A stretch of 49,887 nucleotides of DNA from Desulfobacteraceae bacterium (GCA_014237365.1 JABZFQ010000206.1:1-49887); one strand, 5' to 3'. Shown: positions 2,886 through 46,264, counted from the first letter of the stretch. Notes: a model not told the origin generated them from the letters alone. Translations and numbers: made by a program.

Positions 2886-3767
2886 TTAGTTCAATGAAGA
2901 TAGAAATTCTTTTATCTCACTTGGAACCCGATTTGCCTCTCGTATTTTTCTTGCAAAATGGAAGCGAGGATTGTCTGCAATTTTATATTTCGATTTCAAC
3001 CTTTCTAATAAACGTTTCCCATCAATTATTCTGAGCAAAGAGTAAAATTGTGAATCATTATTTTCCGATTTTTTATCAAATTTATTAAGCCGATCACAAA
3101 TATTGGAAAAAAATTTTTCCCATCCGGATAATGTTTTCATTCTTTGTTGAATGAAATTATCAACTTCTTCTCTAATACCTTCCCCATCAAAATTTCGGCA
3201 GTATCCCGCACCAGGTATTGACAAGCCATATTCACGCAATAATATGCATGCGCCCATAACAAAGATTAAATTGCAACATTCCTGAGTTAATTCGTTTAAA
3301 ACAACATTATTGCTTCTTTTTTTTCTTCCCCGCTCATGATCCGCTAAAAATTCTTCGACTATTAGAGAATCGAAAAGGTAATTTTCAATCTCCCAGCGTA
3401 ATAGCGTATGAATATACTCGCCAAATGGAAACTTTGCTTTATATTTTTCATCATCGGTTTCAAGTAGAATATCCCAGTTCTTTTTTGAAAAAAGCGCATC
3501 GCGATCTACTATTCCATAAGCCTTTATCCCGTTTTCACGATCTTCCTTTACTCTCGACCGCACACCTGAATACCCTCCTGTAGAATGAAAATTGTCCGCA
3601 GATGTTCTGAATTCAATATGTTCGCCAAAGTCGAAAAACCATCTGTCTGCCAAAATTGATACATCTTCTTCAGATTCGAGGTATACAATGATTTTTAATG
3701 CATATCGTTTTTCTAATGTTATAGCGCTGTCGAATGATTTGAATTCAGGCACCTTTAGACCCCTCAC
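2886..3767 (-). CDS. DUF4435-type (OLD/Toprim-like) putative nuclease, PARIS AriB-like
   Basis: 293 aa. Acidic Toprim-like motifs are IIVYLESEEDVSIL, AYGIVDRDALF and RWEIENYLF. The GTG start overlaps the stop of the upstream ATPase (GTGA). Pairing of an ABC-type ATPase with a DUF4435 protein is the PARIS (AriA/AriB) architecture. Confidence 0.65.
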   Translation of the reverse strand: MRGLKVPEFKSFDSAITLEKRYALKIIVYLESEEDVSILADRWFFDFGEHIEFRTSADNFHSTGGYSGVRSRVKEDRENGIKAYGIVDRDALFSKKNWDILLETDDEKYKAKFPFGEYIHTLLRWEIENYLFDSLIVEEFLADHERGRKKRSNNVVLNELTQECCNLIFVMGACILLREYGLSIPGAGYCRNFDGEGIREEVDNFIQQRMKTLSGWEKFFSNICDRLNKFDKKSENNDSQFYSLLRIIDGKRLLERLKSKYKIADNPRFHFARKIREANRVPSEIKEFLSSLN

Positions 3768-4912
3768 ATCATATTTAGATCATTTTCTATCAAATATCCG
3801 CTTTTTCTCAAGCCCTTTTCTTCAACTTCGAAGGCGAAAGCCCTAATGATCTCTCGGGAATGGGTACTGGAGATTATCGTCAAGCCTGGATATGCTATTG
3901 CCATGTCTTTTAACCAGTTCAGGATTTTATGCTGCCATTTTGAATGCAGATGAACGTCCATTTCATCAATCAGCAAAATAGTATTGCTTGTCATATGGGC
4001 TCCCATGCGGAGACAAATTTGAAGCAGGCTCTTTTCACCGCTGCTCAACTGGTCAATACGATGCTCATGACCTTCATTTTCGATAATGGCCTCCGGTGGA
4101 TCTTTTCTAACTCCTTTCAAAAATTTATTTTTGCCTCGAAAAACTCTTTTATTTACTATTGCCAATGAACGTTCAAAACGGCCATCATCAATCCACTTCA
4201 ACCATACTAGAAGGTTGTCCAAAGAGTGTGTCCATTGCCGGCCTTCTTTACCGAATTTGTTTACAATATTGTATCCCCATCCCTCGGGGGTCGTTATTTT
4301 ACGTTCACTTTCACTGATCGTTTCAATATTGCGATAGGCCGAAAAATACAATAATGTCGGATAGGTCAAACTGTCATTTTCGAATTCTAATAATCGCCGA
4401 CCTCTTTCATTTTTCAACAGTATAGAAAAATCATTAACCCATGAATTTGTTTCATGTATCGTTTTGATACGGCCGGATGCCGATTTTCTAAATCCATAGA
4501 GATGCCATGCTTCTGCGCCAATTTTTTCCAACTCTTCGTGATTCCATTCCTTCAGCACTGTACCTTCTCCTATATTGCCTGCGATAAGGGAAAAAATATA
4601 AGAGCTTTTTTTTCCATCCTGATCAATATCAAGAAGAATATCCCATTGCGCGCGACCCCCTCCTTTATCAAGAGACTCAATTCCGAATTCATTCAGTTGA
4701 TCCCGGCCTAACATATCCATCATACAAGCCATCAAATCCAGAAGCGTTGTCTTTCCGCGTCCGTTCTCCGATGCTAACAAATAATAATTGCAAGGACGGC
4801 CATGCCTGTCTGTAAAATCAAAAGACCACAGTTTCTCCTGAAACGGGCCGATACGGTCCACTGTCAAGCGGACAGGGCGAAAACCTGTCACATGAAATTT
4901 ATCTATCTCCAT
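3764..4912 (-). CDS. ABC/SMC-type ATPase (AAA_21/23-like), PARIS AriA-like
   Basis: 382 aa. Walker A is ASENGRGKTTLLD, the ABC signature is LSSGEKSLL, Walker B is ILLIDEMDVHLH, and the H-loop is SSTHS. The ATG lies 14 nt inside the end of the upstream gene. Confidence 0.7.
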   Translation of the reverse strand: MEIDKFHVTGFRPVRLTVDRIGPFQEKLWSFDFTDRHGRPCNYYLLASENGRGKTTLLDLMACMMDMLGRDQLNEFGIESLDKGGGRAQWDILLDIDQDGKKSSYIFSLIAGNIGEGTVLKEWNHEELEKIGAEAWHLYGFRKSASGRIKTIHETNSWVNDFSILLKNERGRRLLEFENDSLTYPTLLYFSAYRNIETISESERKITTPEGWGYNIVNKFGKEGRQWTHSLDNLLVWLKWIDDGRFERSLAIVNKRVFRGKNKFLKGVRKDPPEAIIENEGHEHRIDQLSSGEKSLLQICLRMGAHMTSNTILLIDEMDVHLHSKWQHKILNWLKDMAIAYPGLTIISSTHSREIIRAFAFEVEEKGLRKSGYLIENDLNMM

Positions 4913-6398
4913 TTATTTGCCCCCTGCTGATTTCTTTTAAACTTGATGCAATATCATCTCTGCGAATATGTACGCCATGTATTCTGATAACGCTTTTTCC
5001 CAACCATCTGCATAGCATGTCGCCTTTGCCGGTAAGACGCTCAGCGCCTGTTTCGTCTATAATGATTTTCGATTCGGTGGATTTTTGAACAGTCAACGCT
5101 ATACGGCTTGGGACATTGCTTCGCAAAAGACCGCTAAACGTTGTTGAATCCGGTCTCTGTGTTGCGAGTACAAGATGAATGCCGGCGGACCGCCCTTTTT
5201 GCAACAAACGTATTAATGGCCCCTCTATATCCTGTTTTTGCATCAGCAAATCAGCCAATTCCTCGACGATAACTACAATACGGGGTAAACCGGTTATTCC
5301 GGCTAAAGTTGCCTCCGTTAAATTTGTTACATTTGATTTGGCAAATTTCTGTTCTCTTTTGGACATTTCTGTGACAAGCTCTGAGAGCAAATTGTGTGCA
5401 TCGAAAACTTCTGTGACAATTTCGTCATTATACAGATTTTTCAAACCGTTATATTGTGAAAACTCGACAGCCTTGGGATCAATCAAGCATAGCGTTAAAT
5501 TGGAATTATAATTATTATGCAGTATCGAAAGAATTAAGGCATGTAGGCAAACGCTTTTTCCGCTTCCGGTTGTTCCCCCTACGAGGAGATGAGGGGCCTC
5601 CGCCAAATCGAAACAGATTGGCTCTCCAAGGACATCGACACCGGGCCATACAGGCAAAATATAATCACTGGGCGGGTCTGCTGCCCACTCGCGTAAATCC
5701 CCACCAGTGAAATAGTGCCAAGTGGATGCGGGACGAGGTACATCCAGCCCAATAATCCGTGGTTTATCTGTCATGTTTTCAAAAACCCGATGCTTCCCTA
5801 TCCCCAAGTAAAAAGATATTTTATCCAAACCTTTTTGCAGTCGATCCAGGTCATTTATGTTCGGCAAATAAATATAAAACCGAGTCAAACGAGGCCCCTT
5901 GACAATATTTCGTATTTCAGCCTTAACTCCGATTTCACTAAGAGCGCTCTTTACCTGTTTTTCAATATCCTCGTCCATTTTCTGTTGCTGGCTAATAAGA
6001 TTTGAAAAGAGTTCTTGATAGAGATATTCATGGAAATCATGGGATTCTTTCCAGGCGGTTCGTATCTCGCGTAAGCCGCGCCGGGCATGTCGTTGCAGGT
6101 AAATTCTGTACTGATCTATATTCTTAAACAGGTCTTTTTGATGATACACGCTCAACAATGCGCAAAAGGAATCGGTATAATCAGGTTTTTGGCTTTCACC
6201 CGTAAGCTGCTCGAAACTGTATTCGCTTCCCCCCTTGATTCCTTTGTCGAGTTCATCCGAAGGTTCAGTGGGTATCCGTAACGAAATGGCAAGAGCGATT
6301 CGTAATACCGTCCATTTTGGTCCAGGAGCAAATAATCCCTTTTTCAGGACGTTATCAATAACACGCTCGTCTTTTTCACTGGTATATATCTTCGGCAT
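4899..6398 (-). CDS. Fusion protein: N-terminal DndE-like (DUF1832-like) region + FtsK/SpoIIIE-type P-loop translocase domain
   Basis: 499 aa. The C-terminal half has FtsK motor motifs: VGGTTGSGKSVCLHALILSI, IVVIVEELADL, GIHLVLATQRPD and SRIALTVQ. The N-terminal part (TVLRIALAISLRIP...GGSEYSFEQLTGE) resembles DndE by eye and sits where dndE normally lies, after dndD. Confidence 0.6.
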   Translation of the reverse strand: MPKIYTSEKDERVIDNVLKKGLFAPGPKWTVLRIALAISLRIPTEPSDELDKGIKGGSEYSFEQLTGESQKPDYTDSFCALLSVYHQKDLFKNIDQYRIYLQRHARRGLREIRTAWKESHDFHEYLYQELFSNLISQQQKMDEDIEKQVKSALSEIGVKAEIRNIVKGPRLTRFYIYLPNINDLDRLQKGLDKISFYLGIGKHRVFENMTDKPRIIGLDVPRPASTWHYFTGGDLREWAADPPSDYILPVWPGVDVLGEPICFDLAEAPHLLVGGTTGSGKSVCLHALILSILHNNYNSNLTLCLIDPKAVEFSQYNGLKNLYNDEIVTEVFDAHNLLSELVTEMSKREQKFAKSNVTNLTEATLAGITGLPRIVVIVEELADLLMQKQDIEGPLIRLLQKGRSAGIHLVLATQRPDSTTFSGLLRSNVPSRIALTVQKSTESKIIIDETGAERLTGKGDMLCRWLGKSVIRIHGVHIRRDDIASSLKEISRGQINGDR

Positions 6399-6409
6399 AA
6401 CACGCTCGC

Positions 6410-8440
6410 TTATGAATACATTGACTTTCTTTCGGGGCTCGTATGCTCACCGTCCGGATTATTCAAACGATACTCTTCCAATATATGAGGTTTAAGTATA
6501 TTGTATTTCTCTTTGTCTAACTCTGAATCCGTTGGAAGGAGAATTACCTGATCTCCGGCGTGCGGATAATAATGAGTCAAAAGATTTTGCTGGTGTCCTC
6601 TGTCAAAGCGTGCGAGGGGGGTATCGATAATCACCGGAAGAGATTTGCCTGAAACATCTTTCAGCGTCCACAATAATGATGTAGCAAAGAGTTGTTTCAT
6701 TCCGGCAGAGAGTCCTGCCATACCTACATGGGTTTTGTTATATCCGATGTATTGATAGCTAAAATCATCAAGTATTTCAATGCGGCTGATCTGTTTATGG
6801 GAACTCATCAATTTGCTGAAATGCTCGTTGATAGAATTCTCCATGTTCTCTTTTTGATTTTTTATCAGTCTCGCTTTGTACTCGGAATAAAGCTGTTTGA
6901 GTACGTCACCAAGTTGAACACGCTGTTTTGCGGTATGAGCTAACCTGACTGTCTGCTTTTGTTTATCAATTTCTTTTTGTTTTGATTTGACCTTATTTTC
7001 TTTTATATCTCTTATGTTACCTTCAATTTCTATCTTCTGTTCCTTTTTTTCATCAAGTTCTATTTTATTTTCCTCATAATGCCGTTTTCGGGCTTCATAT
7101 CGTTCTTTTTCATCTTTTTCCAGGCTGCTCATGTCATGAATTTTGTCGTTTATCTTCTCTATTTCTTTTCGTAACCTGCTGACAGCCCGCAAATTTTCAG
7201 AGTACCTTATCAACATATCCTTCGGGGCAATAAATTGCTCAAGATTTTGATATAATCGTTTTGCCCTGGCATATTCAAGCGAGAAAAGCCTTGAATCTTT
7301 TGAACCGCTTACCAAATATGGACTTAAAAGTCCATTTAGCTTGGTTTTATAGAAATCCTTCTGGTTGTCGATTAAGGGCGGCGTTGAAGGCAATCCTTTG
7401 TTAAAAAGATCCCTTGGGAGATCTTTCAATATTTGTCGCAATGTTTCCGTCAGAATACCGCTTTCGCTGTTTAATTGTTCTCTTAATATATTAATGGCTT
7501 TGAAAATCAAATCAGGATTCACAAGTAACGGTATGCTCTGCGGGAGATTAAGCGCAACTTCAAAATTTTTTTCCTGAAGTTGTTCATTTTTATTTTCAAA
7601 ATCTCTTTTAAGCAACTCCGCCTTATGCTCGTGCGCATAAGCCTGTTTGCTTTGCAAATAATTCAAATCTTTTTCGATTTCAATTTCCAGGTCACGAGTT
7701 TTTTCAATATTTCTTTCTAATTTCTCCGTTTCAGAAGCAAGTTTGGCCTCATATTCCGCAAGTTCTTTTTCAAGAATTCTAAGTCGATGATTAGCATCGG
7801 AAGGAGAGCCTTCCCGTCTCCATTTCCTTATATTTATTTCAATATTATTAGATAGTGTATCCAGCTTATCCAGCCCGAATAACCGTTCGATTTGTTCCAG
7901 GAGTTCCTCGCGATTTGCCTCTGCGATGGCTTGCACCTGTTCGCCGTCATATATAAAAAAGGAAACGATGTCTCTGGGAATCCTGGCATGTAAAAAACCC
8001 TGTGCTTCTTCAACTTCTTCCGGAACCCGGCCGAAACTCGGAATGACTTCTAATTTATGATTATAATCATTCCTGCCTTGCAGATGCCAAGATCGTTTGG
8101 CATCCACAGTCCCGGATTCTTCTTCCCAGATAACCCTGACGCTGAATTCCTCCTCTCCTTCGTTGCGGGCCGCGCAATTCATTATGCCCAGCCATTCCTC
8201 ACCCGTTCCAAGTAGATATGCTTTTGGGCTTAAGCTTCGCCCACGTTGAATATTGTTCAGTAATAGTTTATCAGTTCCAAGAAAAAGGAGTTTTACGCTT
8301 TCCATAAAACTCGTTTTTCCAAATCCGTTCCGGCCGGAAATCAATGTTATGTTTCTACTATTTTCGGGGGGAGAAAAAGCAAAGGTCTGGGTACCGTAGT
8401 AGGAAAATAAATTATGAATATGCACTTCTCTAATGATCAT
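6410..8440 (-). CDS. dndD: DNA phosphorothioation ATPase DndD (SMC-like)
   Basis: 676 aa. The N-terminus is MIIREVHIHNLFSYYG...ISGRNGFGKTS. A long coiled-coil middle follows, and the C-terminus is LSAGMKQLFA...VIIDTPLARFDRGHQQNLLTHYYP...QVILLPTDSE, which is typical of DndD. The start overlaps the dndC stop by 11 nt. Confidence 0.8.
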   Translation of the reverse strand: MIIREVHIHNLFSYYGTQTFAFSPPENSRNITLISGRNGFGKTSFMESVKLLFLGTDKLLLNNIQRGRSLSPKAYLLGTGEEWLGIMNCAARNEGEEEFSVRVIWEEESGTVDAKRSWHLQGRNDYNHKLEVIPSFGRVPEEVEEAQGFLHARIPRDIVSFFIYDGEQVQAIAEANREELLEQIERLFGLDKLDTLSNNIEINIRKWRREGSPSDANHRLRILEKELAEYEAKLASETEKLERNIEKTRDLEIEIEKDLNYLQSKQAYAHEHKAELLKRDFENKNEQLQEKNFEVALNLPQSIPLLVNPDLIFKAINILREQLNSESGILTETLRQILKDLPRDLFNKGLPSTPPLIDNQKDFYKTKLNGLLSPYLVSGSKDSRLFSLEYARAKRLYQNLEQFIAPKDMLIRYSENLRAVSRLRKEIEKINDKIHDMSSLEKDEKERYEARKRHYEENKIELDEKKEQKIEIEGNIRDIKENKVKSKQKEIDKQKQTVRLAHTAKQRVQLGDVLKQLYSEYKARLIKNQKENMENSINEHFSKLMSSHKQISRIEILDDFSYQYIGYNKTHVGMAGLSAGMKQLFATSLLWTLKDVSGKSLPVIIDTPLARFDRGHQQNLLTHYYPHAGDQVILLPTDSELDKEKYNILKPHILEEYRLNNPDGEHTSPERKSMYS

Positions 8441-9746
8441 GACTCAAATCCGCGTTTTCTATCTGCTCGACGGCTTTTTCGATCAACTCCCCGACATCAC
8501 GTTCCAGCCCTGTTTTAGCTCCCCAGGCGTCGAGGTTTTCATGTTTTTCATAGACCAGATTTAAAAGGGCTCCAACGAGTTCCTGCTGCACTTCATACGT
8601 TTTACAAAATTCCTCAATATATTTTTGGTCCAGTTCAATTAAAAACGATGAATTCTTCGGCATATCGACCTCCCTTCCAAATGAATGAGCTATCTTCAAA
8701 GCCGAATTTTCAAAATCAAAATCCTGATTCCATATACTCTGGATATATTCGATTTCAGAATTATCAAGCAACTCCTCATTTATCTCTTTTTCAATTGAAA
8801 GTAAACTGTTAAGGAGCATTTTACGCGTTTCATAGTTGAAAGGGCCGATCCCTTCTCGCTGATTCCGCTTATAAGGTAATCTGTATTTTTCTTCTTCTCT
8901 TATGTTTTTCAGTAAATTGCGGAATTGAGAAAGAGGAAGCATTTCCGATTCACCGGCGGCAATAAATCCTTCCATGGATTTATCATGTTTTACAACTGTA
9001 CATGTCCAGCAACCGAATCTGCTTCCACCACATGATGGTGTATTTAAGTCAAAAATAACGGGACACTCCCCCCCCGCTGCCTGAGAATAGAGATCAAACA
9101 TAAAATCATGTTTTTCTCCCCATGGCGGCGGATTATTGTTTATCAAATAATCCCAAACCATTTGATTTGTCCATTCTGCAATAGGCGAAGCAACAAGAGC
9201 GTTCGGTATTTCATGATGGAAATTTAGTTTCTGTTCGTTATAATCGCGCTTTTCCATACGCATTTTTCTGCTCGAACTCTCATCTTTCCTCGTGCCCAGT
9301 AATAGAATGACACTCCCATACTGTTTAGTTATTTTATCAATTACCCTGCGTGCAGGCTTGATTTTCATTTTCGACGTACACCATCTAAACCATCTCGTGG
9401 GGGAGGGGTATCCTTTTCCAATTAAATTTCCCCAAAAACTCTCTTCAGGTCTCGGCTTAACTAAAATCGTTTCAAGAGGAAGAGAGTATTCATCGGCGTG
9501 TCTTGATACACATTTTAATGAATATATCATATAATTTTTAATATTGGGAGCTTCAACTCTCGTATCCGTGGTAAGGACATAAACAGGTTTATACATTGAC
9601 TTGTCGAGTTCATGTAACAATTCCACCACAAGTTGCAATACTAAAGTCGAATCTTTTCCCCCTGAATAAGCTACTACCCATGCTCTTTTATCATTTTTAA
9701 AAAGATTCTTAAGATATTGCCGTGTGTTTTCGATAGTTTTATCCAT
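8430..9746 (-). CDS. dndC: DNA phosphorothioation PP-loop ATPase/sulfurtransferase DndC (PAPS-reductase fold)
   Basis: 438 aa. The PP-loop is AYSGGKDSTLV. The Cys cluster is CPVIFDLNTPSCGGSRFGCWTCTVVKHDKSM, characteristic of DndC. It is the first gene of the operon. Confidence 0.8.
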   Translation of the reverse strand: MDKTIENTRQYLKNLFKNDKRAWVVAYSGGKDSTLVLQLVVELLHELDKSMYKPVYVLTTDTRVEAPNIKNYMIYSLKCVSRHADEYSLPLETILVKPRPEESFWGNLIGKGYPSPTRWFRWCTSKMKIKPARRVIDKITKQYGSVILLLGTRKDESSSRKMRMEKRDYNEQKLNFHHEIPNALVASPIAEWTNQMVWDYLINNNPPPWGEKHDFMFDLYSQAAGGECPVIFDLNTPSCGGSRFGCWTCTVVKHDKSMEGFIAAGESEMLPLSQFRNLLKNIREEEKYRLPYKRNQREGIGPFNYETRKMLLNSLLSIEKEINEELLDNSEIEYIQSIWNQDFDFENSALKIAHSFGREVDMPKNSSFLIELDQKYIEEFCKTYEVQQELVGALLNLVYEKHENLDAWGAKTGLERDVGELIEKAVEQIENADLSHDH

Positions 9747-9776
9747 AAGTTGGGGATTGTCCCTTATTATGTGGGT

Positions 9777-10062
9777 GGTCCCTACAAAAGAGCGCAGGTC
9801 AATAATTTCAAGCAGTTAGCGCTCAGTTGCGGTGAATGAGTTCATGCGTGAATCAAGGGTTTGCAGAGTATACCAAGCATTTTTTTGACCACCTGCACTG
9901 TTTTGTAGGAACTATAGACTTTCGGTAGTCCCTACAAAGCAGTGCAGGTTTGGGAATACTGCCCTGTTTTACTATGTAAATACCTGGTTTTTTGCTATGT
10001 GTTGCCAGAAGACATGATATGTAACTTATTGAAATTATTGACCCTCGTTGCTTTGTAGGCAC
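9777..10062. mobile_element. MITE-2 (about 286-bp foldback element), complete copy
   Basis: Roughly 40-bp imperfect terminal inverted repeats: GGTCCCTACAAAAGAGCGCAGGTCAATAATTTCAAGCAGTTA against the reverse complement of TAACTTATTGAAATTATTGACCCTCGTTGCTTTGTAGGCAC. A central hairpin pairs CCTGCACTGTTTTGTAGGAAC with GTCCCTACAAAGCAGTGCAGG. Partial copies lie at 22296-22553 and 34754-35050. Confidence 0.7.
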
Positions 10063-10354
10063 TGCCAAAATACAAGATCAACAAAGTGTAAACTACTTTT
10101 GACTTGTCGTGAAGGATGCCAAAAAATTCTACTAATTTTATAAAAAATGGGTGCCACAAATTATCAATCGACTATGGCATGCACAGTTGTTATTGGCTAA
10201 AGTTAGAACCAAGTCCGAATTTGTTTTGAATTGCGGATTTCGTTATTCAAATTTTGCCTAAACATGACTTTTCGTTCAGGCGTTTTAATTTTAATTACCT
10301 GCAACTCCCTCAGATTGTTAAGTTATTATTTGAGTTTTTAAATTTCTGATGATG

Positions 10355-10876
10355 TTATTGAATTTGTTGCGGGCCCAACGTAAGTTCTATATTTAAGAGG
10401 CTTGGTTTTAAAATTTTAGTCCGTTTGATCCACCCTTTTTTTTCTATAATCACCGGAATATCAAATAACCTCACCATTCTTTCTTTATAAAGGAAATAGT
10501 AACCTGCTACAATAGCTATATATTTTGCGCCCTCGGCTCGGTTCAAAGTAAAAGTCAAATCTTGCCCGGGATGAATGATTAATCTTTCTGAACCAGCCAC
10601 ACTGGCATCAAAAAGGCCGCATTCCAAAAGTTTGTAAAGTCCGTTATTATCGCCGGCAAGGTGATTGAAAGTATTCGGATCTCTGAGTTGATAAACACAT
10701 ATAAGGAGAGTGTGAGGCGATCCCTCGTGGAGGTTTAATTGAAAATCGGCTTTTAAGTGAAGTTGAACAGCCTCATTTTCGTATCTCCACTCCGGAGGGG
10801 CAAGAGGCTGGGACGCACATGAACAGACTCCTAAAGCAAGCAACCACAGGAACAGTATTTTAATATATTTTTTCAC
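10355..10876 (-). CDS. tssJ: T6SS outer-membrane lipoprotein TssJ
   Basis: 173 aa. Lipoprotein signal with lipobox (LALGVCSC). The size and the VYQLRDPNTF segment are typical of TssJ/SciN. Confidence 0.7.
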   Translation of the reverse strand: MKKYIKILFLWLLALGVCSCASQPLAPPEWRYENEAVQLHLKADFQLNLHEGSPHTLLICVYQLRDPNTFNHLAGDNNGLYKLLECGLFDASVAGSERLIIHPGQDLTFTLNRAEGAKYIAIVAGYYFLYKERMVRLFDIPVIIEKKGWIKRTKILKPSLLNIELTLGPQQIQ

Positions 10877-10888
10877 TTTATTATCTCC

Positions 10889-11623
10889 TTATAGTACGAA
10901 CAATTTCTGAGAATTCTTTTCAAATTCTCTTAAGAATTTCTCCATAAAGCGTCCTGAATCAAACCATTTTTTGCATGTATAAAACTTTTTTTCATATACT
11001 TCAAACAATTCTGCTTTTTGGAAAGGACCGAACTTAAAACCTCCGCTACCCGCGGTTTTGATCTGCTCAGGGTCCAATTCGTTTAGAATTTCGCCTATCT
11101 CGGTGTGGGCAGCCTCTTTAAATGCTTGATGTGCAATCAGAAAGGCTTTTTCGATCTGTCCAAGATAGCTCGAAAGGGATCGAGCATGGCTTTCTCCACC
11201 TTCCAGATAAAAACCTATGACCTGCCTGATCGTTTCATCCCCGATGCTTTTGCCAAGAAAGGCTGTATTAATCACACCCACCACTTGATTGAGGGCGTCA
11301 AAGATAGTATTCAAGGATTCAGCCAATTTTTGTAAAAGTTCTGTGGAAGATAGATCGGCCTGAGATATCCTTCTTCCTAACATTAACGAAAAAAGTCTCG
11401 CAAGAACCTCTTTATCTATGCTTGAATCTCTGTATCTATTTGAAATCGCTGCATTAAATTCATCAGCCAGCCTCTCAAGCAACGTTAATTTTTTGCTATC
11501 TGAAAATTTTTTTAGTTTTTCTTCAAGATATGTTTCGATTAAAGTTTCAGCATGCAGGCGATCTGACTTATAAATTCTTTTGATTTCATTTGATAGTTGT
11601 TCTATTGATATTTGGTTGTTCAT
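10889..11623 (-). CDS. T6SS-associated protein resembling the non-FHA C-terminal region of TagH/ImpI
   Basis: The ORF track gives 10889..11707. I prefer the ATG at 11623 (MNNQISIEQL), 5 nt after the upstream stop and preceded by GGGGA. The resemblance to the TagH C-terminus (AHQAFKEA...LDPEQI...FEVYEKKF...FMEKFLREFE) is judged by eye only. Confidence 0.4.
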   Translation of the reverse strand: MNNQISIEQLSNEIKRIYKSDRLHAETLIETYLEEKLKKFSDSKKLTLLERLADEFNAAISNRYRDSSIDKEVLARLFSLMLGRRISQADLSSTELLQKLAESLNTIFDALNQVVGVINTAFLGKSIGDETIRQVIGFYLEGGESHARSLSSYLGQIEKAFLIAHQAFKEAAHTEIGEILNELDPEQIKTAGSGGFKFGPFQKAELFEVYEKKFYTCKKWFDSGRFMEKFLREFEKNSQKLFVL

Positions 11624-11627
11624 TCCC

Positions 11628-13616
11628 CTATCTCTTGTCATTACTATTCTCCGGATAAAGGATAACCGTCTCAGATATAAAATCGTTTTCCTTGGGTTTG
11701 CCTGCATCCTTTTTTATGGATGAAAGAGTCGACTTCTCTGACGGAGTAATAACAACTGTTACCGGAATATCGTTCTCCTCTGCCTGAACAGACGGTAATT
11801 TCTCTTTTCTAAAGTCATCAGGCAAAAGGATAACCGTTTCTTCTATCCCATTTTCATCTTGTGAGACAACATTGGTATTATCAAACCGCTCCCTGCTTGC
11901 TGTTGATACACCAACCGTTTTTTCTAATTCATCCTTTTGTGCATCCAGGCCAATACTCCATTTTTCCGTGATCTTAGCGAGAATGTCAGAAATAACCTTA
12001 TTTTCCGAAGCAGGCTCTGCTTGTACAAAATTGAGCTGCTGAGAAAACAATTTGTGTTTGACCTCTTTTCTGAGGTTTTCCAACTCTTGCTGAAATTTGT
12101 CCTTCGACCATTTAGAATTTTCTATCAAGCCAGTCCTCAACTCAATCTTCAATAAAGACCAGCCCAAACCAATAGATTTTTCCCAAAGCCCCACCCAGTC
12201 TTGACTAATACTCTTTACATCAGGAATCCAGAAAATATTTTCAGGAGAAAAAGCCCCATCGGAGCTGTTCTTTAGAAAGCTCTCCAGGTTATCATCATTT
12301 GAGACTATTTTCTCAATTTTTTCTCCAAGACTCACATATACTTCTGAAACACCTTGTTTTTTGTTGACCAGAAGCGTGTAAAACCAAATAATCCCCAGAA
12401 AATGGGGGCTGGAATATGGGAATAATTTAGGAAAAAACGGTGGCTCGACGGCATTTCCCCCTATGTCTATAAAGTTTAGTTTAAAATTCCAGAACAATGG
12501 CAACAGGCCACTCTGGTCTGCAAGGTTAATCCAAATTCTATCGATAGATAAACCAAATCCAGGATCATCCATCCTGGAAAAAATAGTCTGAACAAGCTCG
12601 CCCAAAAAAGAAAGCTTTAAATACAAGACTTCCAGAAAATATCTTTTGTTTTTATCAAAGAAAAAAGGGGTTGTTGCCAGACTATTTTGTTTTAAAGCCT
12701 TCAAACAGTTTATTCTGCCTAATTCTTGTTTTTCGCTAAGCCGACTTTCCAGATCGTCAAATGAGGCGCCTGAAATTAGAGACAAAAAATCATGAATATT
12801 AATCGACCCGGCTTCAAAAATCAACATGTGAAAAGGATAAAAAGAAATTGGAACGATTTTTAAAACAGCTAAACAGTCTGATCCATAGCACTCCTGGTGG
12901 CTGGAGCAATCAATACAAGGAAACTGATTTAAGTGGTTTTTCACTTCTGTGACGCGACCGAAGTCTTTAATCAATTCCCACCTGTCTTTAAGTAGGGAAT
13001 GATCAGAGCTCTCCAATGAAAAAACGTAAAAATTGGATTCACCTGTTGAACCAAAACACGACGAACAAAACAGATAGCGCTTAAGTGAAGCAGAATACGG
13101 CTGAAACCCCAAGCCAGTCAAAATATCGTCATCATAGCATTGTTGAAGAGGCAGCCCACAGATCGGACACGGGGGGTGAAAAAAGATCTGCTTTGATTTG
13201 CAAAAAAATAAAGGCTGGAAAGGTATCAACCCTCCGTTTTCTCCGATTTGATCAGCCAGGATGATGGCGGAACCATCCTGGTTTTTTTTCGAAGAAAACA
13301 AAAAGGCCTTCTGCCAGCATTGATCAACATCCTGGTTATTGAAAGGCCTTAATTCATCCCGTGTTAGATGATATTCATTTTTTTGCAACAAAAGGAATGC
13401 TCGTTTAATTTCACTTCCGGCATCGGTAACAAACCGAGCCTCAATGAGCCTGGCAAAAGGGTCTGACTCACTGATAATTAGAAATGGAAAAGAAGATTTT
13501 TCCAGGATGGAAATATCTTGAGAGATCAAAGAAAAATTCAATTGGAACTTCGTATCGGTAATTTCAAGATAAGGTAGTAAAGATGGCATCTCAATATTAT
13601 TATTGGCATCCGTCAT
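11628..13616 (-). CDS. Hypothetical 662-aa protein with Cys-rich (zinc-ribbon-like) motifs, inside the T6SS regulatory block
   Basis: Long ORF with no family I recognise. Cys motifs are HPPCPICGLPLQQC...FCSSCFGS and FPCIDCSSHQECYGSDC. Lies between the kinase and the TagH-C-like gene. Confidence 0.6.
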   Translation of the reverse strand: MTDANNNIEMPSLLPYLEITDTKFQLNFSLISQDISILEKSSFPFLIISESDPFARLIEARFVTDAGSEIKRAFLLLQKNEYHLTRDELRPFNNQDVDQCWQKAFLFSSKKNQDGSAIILADQIGENGGLIPFQPLFFCKSKQIFFHPPCPICGLPLQQCYDDDILTGLGFQPYSASLKRYLFCSSCFGSTGESNFYVFSLESSDHSLLKDRWELIKDFGRVTEVKNHLNQFPCIDCSSHQECYGSDCLAVLKIVPISFYPFHMLIFEAGSINIHDFLSLISGASFDDLESRLSEKQELGRINCLKALKQNSLATTPFFFDKNKRYFLEVLYLKLSFLGELVQTIFSRMDDPGFGLSIDRIWINLADQSGLLPLFWNFKLNFIDIGGNAVEPPFFPKLFPYSSPHFLGIIWFYTLLVNKKQGVSEVYVSLGEKIEKIVSNDDNLESFLKNSSDGAFSPENIFWIPDVKSISQDWVGLWEKSIGLGWSLLKIELRTGLIENSKWSKDKFQQELENLRKEVKHKLFSQQLNFVQAEPASENKVISDILAKITEKWSIGLDAQKDELEKTVGVSTASRERFDNTNVVSQDENGIEETVILLPDDFRKEKLPSVQAEENDIPVTVVITPSEKSTLSSIKKDAGKPKENDFISETVILYPENSNDKR

Positions 13617-13685
13617 AATTAGCCCAAAATAGTTTACACTTTTAAGGGTAAAAATATCTCCATTAATTAAGAGCGGGAATTGCTG

Positions 13686-15317
13686 CTAAAATATTTTCTC
13701 TTTTTTGAAGTGCTTCTCCATAAAGTCTGCAAGATTTGATCTGTCATAACTGATGTTTAATTTTGTTTTGAGGTGTATCAAATCGTCATGAAGTTCCTGA
13801 GCGCTTTGATATCTTGATTTTTTGTCTTTCTCCAGGCATTTCATCACAATTCTATTTAACTCATCAGGAATATCCGGTCTTAATTTTATTATAGGGGCTA
13901 TTTCTTTTTCCGGAATGAATCTGATGGCTTCTAAATCACTGCCAAATTGATATAATCTTTTCCCTGATAATATTTCATAAAAGACAATACCCAACGCATA
14001 TATGTCAGCTCTATGATCTACAGATTGCCCCAATGCCTGTTCCGGAGACATATAGGAAAGTTTACCTTTAATTACACCAGCCAGAGTTAAACTTGGCTCA
14101 GATCTGGCTTTTGAGATTCCGAAATCGCTTATCTTAACCTCTCCTTGAAATGAAACAAGGATATTCTGAGGACTAATGTCTCGATGAACAATGTTCAGAG
14201 GTTCTCCGGTCTTGTCATCTATTTTGGAATGTGAGTACTGCAAACCTCTACTGATCTGTGAAACAAGAAAAATTGACTGATCAACAGAGAGACCCTTTTT
14301 TGCCTCCACAGTGATTTCAGCCAGATTTTTGCCGCGGATATATTCCATAGAGATAAAGTAAACATTCTGAAACTTGCCAAAATCATTTATCTGAACAATG
14401 TTTGGATGTTGCAATAATGCAGCCAGCCTGGCCTCTCGGATGAACATTTTAATAAACTCTAAATTTTCAATAAGATGAGGCAGTATTTTTTTTATGGCTA
14501 CAATCCTTCGAAAACCATCCTCGCGCACAAAGTCTGCCAGGAATAACTCGGCCATTCCTCCTTGCGCTATTTTCTTTTGCAATATATAAGGGCCGATCCG
14601 AGTCATACCTTCCAATTCTTTTTGAATTTTTAATGCTTTTGTTTTAGAAATACGATCTATCGCTGCCATAATTGCTGAAAACAATAAAAGACTAAAGACT
14701 ATCGCATAGACAAAGAGCGCTTTGTATTTACTTATGGAGCTATATAAGTGGGTTGAAGAAAATATTAAATACACTTTGCCGATATTTATTCCGGAAAAGG
14801 TGACAATTGTTGAAAAGCTGACAATTTTTTCATTGTTGGGTAAAGACTTTGCTTCGATAAAAACCCCTTTAATGGTAGCTATATATCTCCCATTTTTTAT
14901 GGGAATAAGGGTTTCATTTATCATATCAGAATCGGTATGAACCACCAACTTATTTTCATGATTCAGAATCGATATGAATATCAAGTTATTACTACCTTCA
15001 ACCTCACCGATTGTCACATTCAGAGACAAGATATTCTTTTCTAAAAGAGACGGGCCAATCATATCGGCAAGCTTCCGGGTCACTAACAATCCGTGTTGAT
15101 AAAAATCGTTATTCAAATGTTTTACACTGCTATTTAAAATTAAATAGCCAGTTACAGAGGCTATGAACCAAATGATAAGACATATAATTATGCTGTTTTT
15201 ATTACGTCGAACAAATTCTATCGTAAGTAATTTACTAGTGGTCTTCTTGAAAATGTTAGTTGGGAATTCTTTTACCCATAACATGGTTGTTGAGGCAATT
15301 TCGCGAACAGACGCCAT
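13686..15317 (-). CDS. Membrane Ser/Thr protein kinase (PpkA-like role) with N-terminal TM-bounded sensor domain
   Basis: 543 aa. Two TM helices bracket a roughly 140-aa domain. The Hanks kinase motifs are VAIKKI, HRDISPQNIL, DFGISK and SYMSPEQ. Confidence 0.85.
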   Translation of the reverse strand: MASVREIASTTMLWVKEFPTNIFKKTTSKLLTIEFVRRNKNSIIICLIIWFIASVTGYLILNSSVKHLNNDFYQHGLLVTRKLADMIGPSLLEKNILSLNVTIGEVEGSNNLIFISILNHENKLVVHTDSDMINETLIPIKNGRYIATIKGVFIEAKSLPNNEKIVSFSTIVTFSGINIGKVYLIFSSTHLYSSISKYKALFVYAIVFSLLLFSAIMAAIDRISKTKALKIQKELEGMTRIGPYILQKKIAQGGMAELFLADFVREDGFRRIVAIKKILPHLIENLEFIKMFIREARLAALLQHPNIVQINDFGKFQNVYFISMEYIRGKNLAEITVEAKKGLSVDQSIFLVSQISRGLQYSHSKIDDKTGEPLNIVHRDISPQNILVSFQGEVKISDFGISKARSEPSLTLAGVIKGKLSYMSPEQALGQSVDHRADIYALGIVFYEILSGKRLYQFGSDLEAIRFIPEKEIAPIIKLRPDIPDELNRIVMKCLEKDKKSRYQSAQELHDDLIHLKTKLNISYDRSNLADFMEKHFKKEKIF

Positions 15318-15337
15318 GGGAACCTCTCTATCAAAGG

Positions 15338-16204
15338 CTAAACAGCCAGTTTCTTAATAATTTCTATGCATCGGACAATTAGTTGACGTGTCAACCAACC
15401 CAGATCTTTTCTTTTAGCTATTTCCGATAAGAAGATTTCTTTAGATTTATAAAATCCTCCTGGTTTCAGTTTACTATTTGTTGACCGGATAATCCTGAAC
15501 CTGTCCAAGTTTATATAATTAAAAACTTCTTGGGAAAAAGGTTTATTTGTTCCACACAAAGGGCATGCAATACAGGTTGTTTCCGCGAAAACACCCCCTC
15601 CGCTGGCCTGTGATCTATAAACAGCTTTCAGCTTGATAACTATAGACCTAACTTCTTTGTAATATAACACAATTATTACAAAAAATAATATGGTAAAACT
15701 CGAAAGCGCACCAAAACCAAAGCGTTTTTCAAATTTATCAATCTCAGCGGCTGAAATAGCCAGATATATTTCGCCAATCTTTGTTTTTGCATAAGTCACA
15801 TCTGAAGAAAAGCTGACAATCCTTTTGTAGTCGGATGCATCCTCTTCCCAAAAAGAAACTTGATCAACAGTGCGTGCCCTTTCATTTATTGTAGACATTA
15901 CCAATTCAACATTGGTGTAAGCCATGATGTTGTTTTTATGATCAATAATAGCTGCATAAACTATATCCGAATTACTGGTAGCTTCATTAAGCAATGCACT
16001 CAGAGTTGGCATATTCAGTTCTAACAGTGGTAAACTGGCACGACTGGAAAACACTCTGGCCATTTCTACTCCGGATTGACTGATAGTCTTCCTTACCCTG
16101 CTAATTTTACTTGCAGTAATCATATAGAAAACAGCAATACACATCCACCAGGCTAAGAAACAAAACAGGATTAAACGGCTTCTGTTTTTCTGTACCAATT
16201 TCAT
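15338..16204 (-). CDS. Membrane protein with sensor domain paralogous to the kinase N-terminus, plus a CxxC motif
   Basis: 288 aa. The TM, roughly 135-aa domain, TM layout aligns by eye with the kinase N-terminus (AAIIDHKNNIMAYTN vs ISILNHENKLVVHTD; IVSFSSDVTYAKTKIGEIYLAIS vs IVSFSTIVTFSGINIGKVYLIFS). The cytoplasmic tail contains CIACPLCG. Confidence 0.65.
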   Translation of the reverse strand: MKLVQKNRSRLILFCFLAWWMCIAVFYMITASKISRVRKTISQSGVEMARVFSSRASLPLLELNMPTLSALLNEATSNSDIVYAAIIDHKNNIMAYTNVELVMSTINERARTVDQVSFWEEDASDYKRIVSFSSDVTYAKTKIGEIYLAISAAEIDKFEKRFGFGALSSFTILFFVIIVLYYKEVRSIVIKLKAVYRSQASGGGVFAETTCIACPLCGTNKPFSQEVFNYINLDRFRIIRSTNSKLKPGGFYKSKEIFLSEIAKRKDLGWLTRQLIVRCIEIIKKLAV

Positions 16205-16611: not shown

Positions 16612-16761
16612 TTAGGAACGTGGACGAAATAACTTCCCCAAGAAGGCGCACAGATTTGGGTCGAATTTGTTTGATCTCAGATCACAAAAGTTGATGGAAT
16701 AGCTTACCTATTTCAATATTTTTGGGGTTTGAGATCGAACAAAGGCGGCCTGAAGCTGTGA
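16612..16761 (-). mobile_element. MITE-1 copy lacking its distal terminal repeat
   Basis: TTA + GGAACGTGGACGAAATAACTTCCCCAAGAAGGCGCACAGATTTGGG... The homology stops after GAAGCTGTGAT. Confidence 0.8.
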
Positions 16762-16954: not shown

Positions 16955-18172
16955 ATGATTAAACGATATATCAGCAAAATCGCCTTTTCTAGAGATTTTG
17001 GGCGGCAGATGCGTTTTATTATCGGTCCTCGACAGACCGGAAAGACTACTGCTGCAAAGGAATTTCTCAAAGAACAGAACTGCCTGAAGCTTTATTATAA
17101 CTGGGATGACCGTAAAACAAGGGACCGGTATATAGCTGACTATCATTTTTTTGTTCGAGAATTATACAATGTAAAGCCATCAAATGGAAGGCGATGGCTA
17201 TGTATGGATGAAATTCACAAGTATCCTGAATGGAAAAATGTCCTGAAAGATTTTTTTGATTCATTTGGAGAAGAAAACGGCTTTATAGTTACCGGATCTG
17301 CCAGGCTTGATATGATGCGTAAAAGCGGTGACAGCCTGGCGGGTAGATATTTCACCTTTCGTTTGAATCCTGTTACCTTAAGAGAACTGACAGACAAATC
17401 TTTTCTTGAGCCTCCGGCAGATGCAGACGACTGGATAATGCAAAAACTGGATCACCCAACATATAAAAAAAAAGAGCTTTCCGCATTGTTGCGGTTTAGT
17501 GGATTCCCGGAACCCCTGCTTGCTACTTCCGTTCGTTTTCACAACAAGTGGCGAACTGATTATGTTGACAGACTTATTCGCGAAGACATGAGGAATTTGA
17601 CCAGGATTCAGGAGCTTGAAAATATTGCCATTCTCATGTACCTGCTTCCCTCAAAAATTGCTTCGCCTTTATCTATAAATTCCTTGACTGCAAATATTAA
17701 ATGCAGTTTTGCCACAGTCTCCAACTATCTGAAGGCTCTGGAACTGGGATACTTGATATTCAGGATTTCGCCATATTCTAAAAAAATTGCCCGATCCCTG
17801 ACCAAGGAAAACAAAGTGTATTTTTTTGACTGGACAAGAATAAATGATCCTGCCGCACAATTTGAAAATTATATAGCGGTTGAGCTTAAAACGCTTTTGG
17901 AACTTTGGACAGATGCAGGAATTGGCAATTTCGACTTGCATTTTTTACGAGATCGTGACGGCAGGGAGACCGATTTCCTGATACTGCGGGACAAGAAGCC
18001 ATGGTTAATGGTTGAAGCTAAACTTTCCCGTTCAGCCATAGATTATCATCATCGCAAGAACAGGAATACATTGGGTGGCATTTCTTTTGTTCAGTTAGTC
18101 AGACAGGAGAATATTGCTGAAAAAAGAGAGAACGGTCTTTACCAGATCTCCGCTTCAAGATTTTTTGCATAA
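16955..18172 (+). CDS. AAA+ ATPase of the AAA_14/DUF4143 family
   Basis: 405 aa. The N-terminus is FIIGPRQTGKTT (Walker A), followed by LCMDEIHKYPEW (Walker B region). The C-terminal part is typical of DUF4143 proteins. The TAA stop is the target-site triplet of the adjacent MITE-1. Confidence 0.75.
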   Translation: MIKRYISKIAFSRDFGRQMRFIIGPRQTGKTTAAKEFLKEQNCLKLYYNWDDRKTRDRYIADYHFFVRELYNVKPSNGRRWLCMDEIHKYPEWKNVLKDFFDSFGEENGFIVTGSARLDMMRKSGDSLAGRYFTFRLNPVTLRELTDKSFLEPPADADDWIMQKLDHPTYKKKELSALLRFSGFPEPLLATSVRFHNKWRTDYVDRLIREDMRNLTRIQELENIAILMYLLPSKIASPLSINSLTANIKCSFATVSNYLKALELGYLIFRISPYSKKIARSLTKENKVYFFDWTRINDPAAQFENYIAVELKTLLELWTDAGIGNFDLHFLRDRDGRETDFLILRDKKPWLMVEAKLSRSAIDYHHRKNRNTLGGISFVQLVRQENIAEKRENGLYQISASRFFA

Positions 18173-18356
18173 GGAACGGGGACGAAATAACTTCCCCAAG
18201 TAGGCGCATAGATTTGGGTCAAATTTGTTCGATCTCAAATCTCAAAAGTTGATGGAATAGCTTACCTGGTGTGATATTTTTGTGATTTGAGATCAGGCAA
18301 AGGTGGCCTGAAGCCTTGATGCATAGTTGGGGAAGTTATTTCGTCCCCGTTCCTAA
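18170..18356 (-). mobile_element. MITE-1 copy flanked by TAA/TAA
   Basis: TAA GGAACGGGGACGAAATAACTTCCCCAAGTAGGCGCATAGATTTGGG ... TTGGGGAAGTTATTTCGTCCCCGTTCC TAA. Confidence 0.85.
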
Positions 18357-19870: not shown

Positions 19871-20057
19871 TTAGGAACGGGGACGAAATAACTTCCTCAA
19901 GTAGACGCATAGATTTAGGTCAAATTTGTCCGATCTCAGATCACAAAAGTTGATGGAATAGCTTACCTGTTTTGATACTTTTGTGATTTGAGATCGGGCA
20001 AAGGTGACCTGAATCTGTTATGCATAGTTGGGGAAGTTATTTCGTCCCCGTTCCTAA
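19871..20057 (-). mobile_element. MITE-1 copy (flanks TTA/TAA)
   Basis: TTA GGAACGGGGACGAAATAACTTCCTCAAGTAGACGCATAGATTTAGG ... TTGGGGAAGTTATTTCGTCCCCGTTCC TAA. Confidence 0.85.
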
Positions 20058-21339: not shown

Positions 21340-22263
21340 GTGACACGTATGAAATTGCCTATTATTATTGTTCAACTTGTTCATATCTATGGGCCTTTTA
21401 AGGGTGAAATCCAGGAGTTTTCTGAATCAACGATCTTGATTGGTCGCCATCCTTCTTGTCATGTGCTATTTCCGAGAGATGTTGCAATCGTCTCTCGAAG
21501 ACATGCACAAATTATCAGAGAAGGAAATCGTTTTAAGTTAATTGACCAGAGCGCCAACGGGACATTTGTGAACGGAAAAAGAGTAAAAGAAGCATACCTA
21601 AAAGATGGAGATGTTTTGATTTTTGCTGAAGGAGGGCCCAAGGTGAGTTTTTTGACCAAGATAGTGGAAAGTCAACATGAAATCGAAGATATCCCTTTGC
21701 CAACCTCACTGCAAGAACCCGAAATAGCCGGGGTTGAGAAGCCATCTATTGCCAGGGTTCAATCCGAATCTAACCTGGCAGAAGAATTTTCCATGCAGGA
21801 GATTCAGGTTCCGCTTGTCATTCAATTTGGCCCCACCATACGCTCTTTTAAAAAACTTCCTGTGACCATCGGAAAAAATCCGGATTGTGATTTAAGTATA
21901 AACCATCCAGCAGTTCTTGATCGTCATGCCCAGATCTTTTTCAGTCAGGATCAATACTGGATAAAGGATCTCACTGGACAGATGTTGATATCAATCAATG
22001 GGCGTCCTGTTAATTGTCAGAGTCCTTTAATCCCCGAAAACCTTGTGACATTAACTCTTCAGGGACCAACTTTCCGGTTTTTGAATGGTGGGCGTTTAGC
22101 AGAAATTGAAAAATCCGACTCTGAAGAAAGCGTGAACGTGCTTCCTGAAAAAGAAAAGACATGTCCGCCGGACAAGAATCAAGAAGGATGCATCAAAAAG
22201 GCCATGTCCATAAGCAACAAATTTTTAAGGCTTATCGTGGATTGGTGGAAAAATCTTTTTTAA
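21340..22263 (+). CDS. Double FHA-domain protein (T6SS Fha-like phosphothreonine reader)
   Basis: 307 aa; the ATG at 21349 is the more likely start. Two FHA cores are present: ILIGRHPSCHVLF...VSRRHAQI...LIDQSANGTFVNG and VTIGKNPDCDLSI...LDRHAQI...IKDLTG..ISINGRPV. Confidence 0.8.
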   Translation: MTRMKLPIIIVQLVHIYGPFKGEIQEFSESTILIGRHPSCHVLFPRDVAIVSRRHAQIIREGNRFKLIDQSANGTFVNGKRVKEAYLKDGDVLIFAEGGPKVSFLTKIVESQHEIEDIPLPTSLQEPEIAGVEKPSIARVQSESNLAEEFSMQEIQVPLVIQFGPTIRSFKKLPVTIGKNPDCDLSINHPAVLDRHAQIFFSQDQYWIKDLTGQMLISINGRPVNCQSPLIPENLVTLTLQGPTFRFLNGGRLAEIEKSDSEESVNVLPEKEKTCPPDKNQEGCIKKAMSISNKFLRLIVDWWKNLF

Positions 22264-22295: not shown

Positions 22296-22553
22296 CAGTA
22301 TGTGCTGCCAGAAGCTATAATATATAAGGAACGTGGACGAAATGACTCCCCAACTATGCATCACAGATTCAGGCCACCTTTGCCCGATTTCAAATCACAA
22401 AAGTATCAAAATAGCTCGCTATTCCATCAACTTTTGTGACTTGAGATCGAACAAATCTGACCCAAATCTATACGCCTACTTGTGGAAGTTATTTCGTTCC
22501 CGTTCCTAACTTATTGAAATGATTGATCTGCATTGTTTTGTATGGACTACCCT
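22296..22553. mobile_element. MITE-2 right-end fragment interrupted by a MITE-1 copy (22325-22509)
   Basis: GTGCTGCCAGAAGCTATAATATATAA | MITE-1 | CTTATTGAAATGATTGATCTGCATTGTTTTGTATGGACTACC is collinear with 9999-10066 of the complete MITE-2. MITE-1 here is flanked by TAA/TAA. Confidence 0.8.
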
Positions 22554-46109: not shown

Positions 46110-46264
46110 AAAAACAAAGGCAGTAACTGAGGCAATTACTGAAAATTATAAACAATGTAGTAATTTACTATATGAAAAGATGAAGCTCAGTTGATCAATT
46201 ATCTTAAAACAACTTGATTGAGAGAGGAATTTTCGAAACAATAGTCTTTGGTCAAATACAAATT

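Follow-up and report, generated by a model that had tools for sequence, protein, structure and literature searches.

A DndC-DndD-DndEi operon carrying an OLD-type ATPase and an AriB-like Toprim nuclease, a candidate phosphorothioate-based defence cassette

Phosphorothioate (PT) systems place sulfur on DNA, and only three kinds of restriction arm are recognized for them in a 2025 review, namely DndFGH/SspFGH, SspE and PbeABCD (PMC12707154). For most dnd clusters no restriction partner is known, and the role of such "solitary" PT systems is a long-standing puzzle (PMC10853773). This work addresses a five-gene block found at positions 2886-9746, on the minus strand, of a 49,887-nucleotide stretch (hereafter the window) from a Desulfobacterales metagenome-assembled genome (MAG; GCA_014237365.1, JABZFQ010000206.1:1-49887). 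Its five head-to-tail open reading frames (ORFs) encode DndC, DndD, a fusion of DndE with FtsK (DndEi), an ABC ATPase and an AriB-like DUF4435/Toprim nuclease. We give an even chance to the reading that this cassette is a self-contained, horizontally mobile, PT-based defence system, in which DndD and DndEi would serve as the scanner, DndC as the marker and the ATPase-Toprim pair as the effector arm.

The closest described relatives of the modification half are the DndCDEi-type clusters. DndEi was described between 2013 and 2016 and is required for PT modification in Riemerella (PMC6435447, PMC7464106). As relayed in PMC6435447, the DndEi of Riemerella anatipestifer (Zheng et al. 2016) consists of DndE with an additional ATPase/helicase domain, and Rakesh, Aravind and Krishnan (2024) report HerA/FtsK domains fused to DndE beside a DndD-related ATPase (PMC10853773). 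The cassette shares with these clusters DndC, DndD, the fusion of DndE with an ATPase or translocase, and the lack of dndA and dndB within the cluster. It differs in that the published descriptions (PMC6435447, PMC10853773) contain no downstream ABC ATPase and Toprim genes, the comparison being with the descriptions rather than with the genes of the Riemerella cluster. The DndE-FtsK fusion is therefore already known; the hard-wiring of an OLD-type ATPase/Toprim pair onto DndC-DndD-DndEi appears to be undescribed, and to be widespread in environmental bacteria.

The recognized restriction arms resemble the cassette in part. PbeABCD is defined by a CxC (zinc-hook) ABC ATPase and by an HKD nuclease fused to an SF2 helicase (PMC10853773). 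Like the DndCDEA-PbeABCD arrangement, which holds a CxC-ABC ATPase, a cognate DndE, an HKD-helicase nuclease and a small protein, the cassette keeps an ABC ATPase-DndE couple, a nuclease and a small protein near, or fused to, the PT writer. Unlike it, the cassette has a DndD without the CxC hook, a DndE equipped with an FtsK motor, and an effector composed of an ABC ATPase and a Toprim protein, with no HKD/SF2 helicase nuclease. With DndFGH/SspFGH it shares the position expected of an effector arm, and its DndEi has an FtsK domain akin to the C-terminal HerA/FtsK region of DndH/SspH, but DndF, DndG and DndH are all absent from the window. The nucleases that Rakesh et al. (2024) place in Dnd neighbourhoods are HKD, HNH, REase, URI, HEPN and PIN, with no Toprim or OLD among them (PMC10853773). 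Full-text searches combining phosphorothioate with DUF4435, Toprim or PARIS returned no description of the cassette, Krishnan 2020 and Zheng 2016 being outside their coverage and an earlier depiction in a figure or supplement being possible. An earlier note on this DNA, made from its sequence, had proposed an undescribed PT-linked system, and in the literature covered (which excludes Krishnan 2020) no PT system with an ATPase/Toprim effector pair has been catalogued.

The operon and its modification proteins

The first gene, dndC (8430-9746), encodes a PAPS-reductase/PP-loop sulfurtransferase of 438 aa with an Fe-S cysteine cluster and a C-terminal tail. It is followed by dndD (6410-8440; 676 aa), a coiled-coil ABC ATPase, by dndEi (4899-6398; 499 aa), by the gene for the compact ABC ATPase (3764-4912; 382 aa), and by the nuclease gene (2886-3767; 293 aa as first called). 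As first called, dndC and dndD overlap by 11 nt, dndD and dndEi are separated by 11 nt, dndEi and the ATPase gene overlap by 14 nt, and the ATPase and nuclease genes overlap by 4 nt. These are the co-directional ORFs and junctions given in the earlier note, and all of them were found; the last overlap is the one that probably does not stand. Because a GAGGGG Shine-Dalgarno site lies 7 nt upstream of a GTG at 3752, and because homologs begin at the same alignment column, this GTG is the more likely start of the nuclease, giving a protein of 288 aa and an 11-nt gap after the ATPase stop in place of the 4-nt overlap. The coupling of the two genes is tight with either start.

A hairpin with a perfect 19-bp stem and a 19-nt loop follows on the same strand at 2814-2870, 16 nt past the stop of the last gene; the earlier note had observed the stem in this place. 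Its arms (2814-2832 and 2852-2870) are complementary at 19/19 positions, the RNA folds at -32 kcal/mol (z = -7.5), and the sequence occurs once in the window. No T-tract comes after it, and this absence, together with the long loop, rules it out as a canonical intrinsic terminator; it is probably the 3' end or a stabiliser of the operon transcript. Within the operon, terminator-like sites are no commoner than in shuffled sequence (7 found, 7.1 expected), and the proposal of a single operon is upheld. An Rfam search of the region gave no match.

DndC scores 339 bits against the NCBIfam equivalog model TIGR03183 (cutoff 290) and matches the PADLOC DndC model at 5e-120. The translation carries the SGGKDS PP-loop and the SCGGSRFGCWTC Fe-S cysteine cluster. 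The C-terminal 70 residues of DndC (approximately 370-438) resemble the small protein Sp-DndD (PF20306, E=0.0068), which is a gene of its own in related clusters. The same tail finds the separate small-protein gene of the Mesorhizobium plasmid pM0123d by tblastn (6e-8), and is likewise aligned in a multiple alignment.

DndD scores 259 bits against the equivalog model TIGR03185 (NCBIfam; cutoff 245.85) and shows the Walker A motif GRNGFGKTS and the Walker B motif IIDTP (within IIDTPLARFD). The hallmarks on which the earlier note based its naming of DndC and DndD are thus all present in the translations. The best PADLOC match of DndD is PbeC (1e-131), with the DndD model at 2e-86. A Pbe assignment was nevertheless ruled out, as there is no CxC hook and no HKD-helicase; the translation has one cysteine only and no CxC motif. 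Judged by sequence, the protein falls in the DndD clade and not in the PbeC/CxC clade as defined in PMC10853773.

The third protein combines DndE, a double ribbon-helix-helix, with FtsK-alpha and an FtsK/HerA motor. Pfam scans detect DndE (PF08870) at residues 26-115 with 26.7 bits (cutoff 25), FtsK_alpha with 31.5 bits and FtsK_SpoIIIE with 141 bits, and find no FtsK gamma domain. PADLOC matches the protein to the C-terminal region of SspH (1e-49). In the DndEi alignment, the Walker A motif GTTGSGKS and the motif ATQRPD are invariant. The earlier note was right about the domains of this fusion, which pass the Pfam thresholds, but overstated its unusualness, since it had been published as DndEi (PMC6435447, PMC10853773).

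The ATPase-nuclease pair

The fourth protein is an OLD/PtuA/AriA-type ABC ATPase (AAA_21/AAA_15) with no long coiled coil. It matches Pfam AAA_21 at 1.8e-16 and the PADLOC models PtuA and AriA at 5e-20 and 8e-16. An alignment of 43 homologs shows complete conservation of G51, G53 and K54 in Walker A, of S290, G292 and E293 in the signature, and of D316 and H351, with E317 almost completely conserved; a wider homolog search gave 414 clusters at 90% identity. The AF2 model of the ATPase (pLDDT 91.7) has as its top fold matches in the PDB the PtuA proteins of retron Ec83/Ec78/Eco7 and of Septu (E 1e-13 to 1e-9), with Rad50 ranking after PtuA. AriA, the ABC ATPase that forms the propeller scaffold of PARIS, is absent from the top 50 fold matches of this model, and PDB sequence matches of the ATPase to AriA are confined to residues 275-358.

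The fifth protein has an AriB-like DUF4435/Toprim domain followed by a C-terminal helical domain, and it is the only nuclease in the cassette. The window copy gives no Pfam match of its own; DUF4435 (PF14491) is matched by 16/44 aligned homologs, and the PADLOC matches are weak (AriAB 3e-7, AriB 2e-5). Its kinship surfaced through structure: sequence and profile searches against the PDB gave nothing, and the AF2 model (pLDDT 92.3) has the AriB chains 8ux9_A and 8v46_D as its best two fold matches, over the full length, with a probability of 0.99 and a TM of 0.40. The residues E31, D35, D88-R89-D90, E126, E128, Y130 and G250-K251 are invariant in the family alignment, and the Toprim active site is complete. 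Searched against 1.84 billion representatives, clustered at 50% identity, a profile of the family reaches 149 clusters with E <= 1e-30 and 499 with E <= 1e-3.

Taken by their models, the two proteins are an OLD-type ABC ATPase and an AriB-like Toprim nuclease, kin to PARIS and Septu and identical to neither. The pair shares with PARIS (AriA ABC ATPase and AriB DUF4435/Toprim) the split two-gene architecture, the AriB fold match, and the retained Toprim E, DxD and ExE residues. It differs from PARIS in an ATPase that is about 80 residues shorter and closer in fold to PtuA than to AriA, in its weak sequence similarity to the AriA/AriB models, and in being fixed inside a dnd operon, whereas PARIS stands alone. 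The PARIS architecture claimed in the earlier note is borne out in part: the nuclease is AriB-like, and the ATPase is structurally closest to PtuA of Septu and retron effectors. Septu and the type I-A retrons (PtuA with the HNH nuclease PtuB) supply the best ATPase fold match, and they too tie an OLD-type ATPase-nuclease effector to a separate sensing module, which is the retron there and the Dnd core in the cassette. Unlike these systems, the cassette has a Toprim rather than an HNH nuclease, with no reverse transcriptase or msDNA. In Gabija and the classical OLD nucleases, ATPase and Toprim lie in one polypeptide (accompanied by the GajB helicase in Gabija), while the cassette uses two genes and no helicase.

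AriB of PARIS and PtuA of Septu and retron I-A are defence effectors restrained by a partner module (PMC12839542, PMC12707154). Within BREX loci, PARIS-like OLD-ABC/Toprim modules have been described in 2026 as serving as backup effectors (PMC12839542), so that coupling a pair of this sort to a system built on modification has a precedent. PARIS is triggered by anti-restriction proteins (Ocr) and cuts tRNA-Lys (PMC12707154). The main rival to an effector arm that responds to PT is a PARIS-style guard. Here the ATPase would sequester the Toprim nuclease and free it on meeting a phage anti-restriction protein, such as a DNA mimic or an inhibitor of Dnd; host tRNA or DNA would then be cut in an abortive infection, with the Dnd genes only writing PT and the pair backing them up with no reading of PT. 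The AriB fold match, the split architecture and the BREX precedent all speak for this guard, which we nonetheless regard as unlikely. The ATPase, compact at 382 aa and nearer to PtuA, is not what would be expected of it, and the cassette contains no restriction component to guard, its flanks being housekeeping genes in eight-plus genomes.

The surrounding DNA likewise offers none of the recognized PT restriction arms. When the remaining large ORFs of the window were scanned with Pfam, no dndA, dndB, dndFGH, pbeA or sspE-type gene was found; the longest ORF in the window is at most 858 aa, and none has DndF, DndG or DndH domains. No aminotransferase class V gene (DndA-type cysteine desulfurase) and no HKD or helicase gene was found across the 49.9 kb, and no HNH domain in the cassette. 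The earlier note had listed the missing dnd, pbe and ssp genes correctly, but had taken the lack of dndA and dndB as unusual, which is in fact ordinary because IscS can stand in for DndA (PMC12707154).

Conservation, movement and genomic setting

About 20 independent loci share the gene order of the cassette. They belong to Desulfobacterota, Beta-, Gamma- and Alphaproteobacteria and Magnetococcus, and the flanks differ every time. Homologs of the ATPase and nuclease led to six distinct places (a Desulfosarcina MAG, a 1.2-Mb ENA contig, Azovibrio restrictus, a Methylocaldum-type contig and two further contigs), all with the order DndC-DndD-DndEi-ATPase-nuclease and each with different neighbours. 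A metagenome scan seeded with the nuclease alignment alone, and annotated by tblastn, gave 27 loci: 10 with all five genes, 5 truncated upstream with DndEi directly before the ATPase, 9 too short to judge, and 3 exceptions. DndEi lies directly upstream of the pair in 15/18 evaluable metagenome loci, and DndC-DndD-DndEi precedes it in 10/10 of those extending far enough upstream. In a genome scan with the DndEi alignment, the Walker-A pattern recruited cellular FtsK, and true DndEi was present in 2/80 loci; loci L009 (Desulfobacteraceae) and L010 (Magnetococcus) of that scan keep the five-gene order. The earlier note had left room for a chance juxtaposition, which is dismissed by the recurrence of the last two genes beside dnd genes in many unrelated genomes.

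The five-gene block moves between bacteria as one unit. In one locus, L007, a 259-nt direct repeat (97% identity; 4817-5075 and 12147-12405) brackets the block, its copies starting 7,330 nt apart and duplicating the 3' end of ahcY, that is, the last 75 codons of the S-adenosylhomocysteinase gene. This bracketing shows that the block was inserted as a discrete whole. The L007 cassette contains no integrase, and a repeat search of the window found no direct repeats bordering the block. The cassette is on two plasmids, and a search of plasmids with the nuclease gave no match, though the Mesorhizobium plasmid holds a divergent homolog. Viral contigs yielded a single marginal fragment, and the cassette is therefore not phage-borne.

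Additionally, the five proteins co-diversify. Among 15 complete loci, mean pairwise identities are 0.53 for DndC, 0.51 for DndEi, 0.48 for the ATPase, 0.36 for DndD and 0.31 for the nuclease, and all ten pairs of identity matrices correlate (r = 0.52-0.84, Mantel p <= 0.0005). The correlation of DndD with the ATPase (0.84) equals that of DndD with DndEi (0.84), which also speaks against the guard. The block could be viewed instead as two independent systems transferred together, a PT-modification operon and a two-gene abortive-infection system with no functional cross-talk. Defence genes do cluster in general, and each half is found alone, the pair in two metagenome loci and DndC-DndD-DndEi in a sister lineage. 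We nevertheless hold this view to be very unlikely, given the preservation of order, orientation and near-zero spacing in about 20 loci at 30-55% identity across several phyla, the 14-nt overlap of dndEi with the ATPase gene, the co-diversification of all five proteins, and the variants that retain DndD/DndE and the pair while DndC is lost (L095) or a second ABC-DndE pair is gained (L089).

The second of these variants is on the Mesorhizobium amorphae plasmid pM0123d (L089, 796-11520). It reads dndA-dndC-ABC(726 aa)-DndE-SP, then DndD'(676 aa)-DndEi-ATPase-nuclease, with dndB on the opposite strand. One dndA-dndC is thus common to two ABC ATPase-DndE pairs, and the ATPase/Toprim genes go with the second. 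The window DndD matches DndD' over its full length (2e-65) and the other ABC protein weakly (3e-16). A related Rhizobium plasmid locus, L090, seems to be a decayed, frameshifted copy.

The three metagenome exceptions are L093, L094 and L095. In L095 (6763-11306) the order is DndD-ATPase-Toprim-DndE, the DndE being a stand-alone protein of 143 aa with no FtsK, and leuD and leuB lie just downstream. The pair occurs without dnd genes in L093 (543-4981), beside a RAMP (type III CRISPR) protein and a second AAA_15 ATPase, and in L094 (3830-10888), beside HATPase_c_3, receiver-like, MBL hydrolase and PIN proteins; identities of these relatives to the cassette pair are 48-49% and 36-38%. Such close relatives without dnd genes are what a PARIS-style guard would lead one to expect. 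However, all three exceptions are nested within the Dnd-linked clade of the ATPase tree, so they look like secondary decouplings, derived and not ancestral, and to this extent count against the guard. Because the pair keeps DndD/DndE both in pM0123d (as DndD'-DndEi-pair) and in L095, which has no DndC, its steadiest partners are DndD/DndE, not DndC.

A sister DndEi lineage carries DndC, Sp-DndD, DndD and DndEi, with or without TusA and DndB, in Aureimonas pAU20f, Nitrosospira, Maridesulfovibrio and Agrobacterium. The ATPase/Toprim pair was found in 0/4 of these loci, and the pair is therefore an add-on of one DndD-DndEi subclade. This lineage bears on a further alternative, in which the pair would not be a defence effector but an accessory of the modification reaction, for example a nickase and loader that readies DNA to receive sulfur. 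Nicked DNA is bound by DndE, and PT insertion has been proposed to include a nicking step (PMC6435447, PMC12707154). Nickases also occur among Toprim enzymes. Against such an accessory, the sister DndC-SP-DndD-DndEi lineage and canonical Dnd modify DNA, or are predicted to, without the pair; relatives of the pair lie in defence islands without dnd genes; and every characterised structural relative of the pair is a defence effector. We consider the accessory very unlikely.

In the window, the block splits a type VI secretion cluster, separating tssJ (10355-10876) from tssK (1135-2520) and tssL (461-1132). The genes tssJ and tssK are usually adjacent. Segments of the type VI cluster lie at 461-2520, 10355-16204, 21340-22263 and 46214-48583, and beyond tssJ there are an FHA-C-like protein, a PpkA-type Ser/Thr kinase, an FHA protein and VgrG. 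Between tssJ and dndC, the intergenic region of 608 nt (9747-10354), read on the minus strand, is presumed to be a promoter or regulatory region. It contains four copies of the palindromic motif ACCTGCACTGYTTTGTAGGRAC (21-26 nt), direct and inverted, at 9768-10072; a pattern search gave 3 close matches in the region against 0.01 expected. The copies may form an array of operators or may belong to a small repeat element. Weaker copies of the motif lie at 22527 and 34755.

Some other features of the window are recorded here as separate observations. A MITE-like element, about 180 bp long and bounded by terminal inverted repeats of 23 bp, GGAACGTGGACGAAWTAACTTCC, has copies at 2597-2776 (between the cassette end and tssK), 18173-18353, 19874-20054 and 22328-22506. 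The window has 11 such arms against 0 expected, single ones being at 16615, 31170 and 49515, and arms of the element border an AAA_14 and DUF4143 ATPase gene at 16955-18172. An ORF of 578 aa (27058-28794) is a fusion of IspH/LytB with a UbiA prenyltransferase, and the same fusion occurs in related Desulfobacterales MAGs. Proteins that fall into the clusters of ParA, ParB and IspH come from MAGs named as Desulfobacterales or Deltaproteobacteria. The 90%-identity cluster of the window DndC contains fragments of 37-46 aa labelled "universal stress protein, partial" from Pseudomonas aeruginosa and Citrobacter freundii, which are probably a clustering or contamination artefact.

A proposed working of the cassette and its meaning

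In the PT-based defence system proposed here, the coiled-coil ABC ATPase DndD and DndEi, with its DndE domain and FtsK-type motor, would form a core that scans DNA and recognizes sites. DndC, supplied with sulfur by the housekeeping cysteine desulfurase IscS, whose gene would lie elsewhere, would write PT on host DNA at the sites chosen by this core. The OLD/PtuA-type ATPase would hold the AriB-like Toprim nuclease in check, and would free or activate it once the DndD-DndEi core signals unmarked DNA, or infection in some other way. The pair would thereby act as the effector (restriction) arm, in the place of DndFGH, PbeA or SspE of known PT systems. We infer the physical coupling of the pair to DndD-DndEi and the PT-dependent discrimination of self from non-self, as well as the substrate of the nuclease, which may be DNA or tRNA.

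Several points weigh against this proposal. AriB cleaves tRNA, not unmodified DNA (PMC12707154), and PT modification by the cassette is itself a prediction from its genes. Locus L095 has no DndC within 10 kb, which is ill-suited to strict PT-dependent restriction, and the stand-alone pairs of L093 and L094 are probably able to work without Dnd proteins, like PARIS. Correlated distance matrices would also be expected of plain co-inheritance. A more specific version of the proposal is advanced tentatively, as possible but not yet probable: DndD-DndEi may be a shared specificity module, as in Type I restriction-modification, guiding DndC on self DNA and licensing the PtuA/AriB-type effector against unmarked DNA.

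The pair provides a concrete candidate, both conserved and compact, for the restriction half that many orphan DNA-sulfur systems lack, and the sister lineage, with DndC-DndD-DndEi and no pair, represents a natural control. At only about 7 kb, and present in at least one named species (Azovibrio restrictus), the cassette can feasibly be cloned directly. It connects PT epigenetics with the OLD-type ATPase-nuclease effectors of PARIS, Septu and retron I-A. If the reading of DndD-DndEi as a shared specificity module is true, the pair would add to PT immunity a fourth effector arm, widespread and so far undescribed, beside DndFGH/SspFGH, PbeABCD and SspE, and OLD-type ATPase-nuclease effectors could be slaved to an epigenetic reader.

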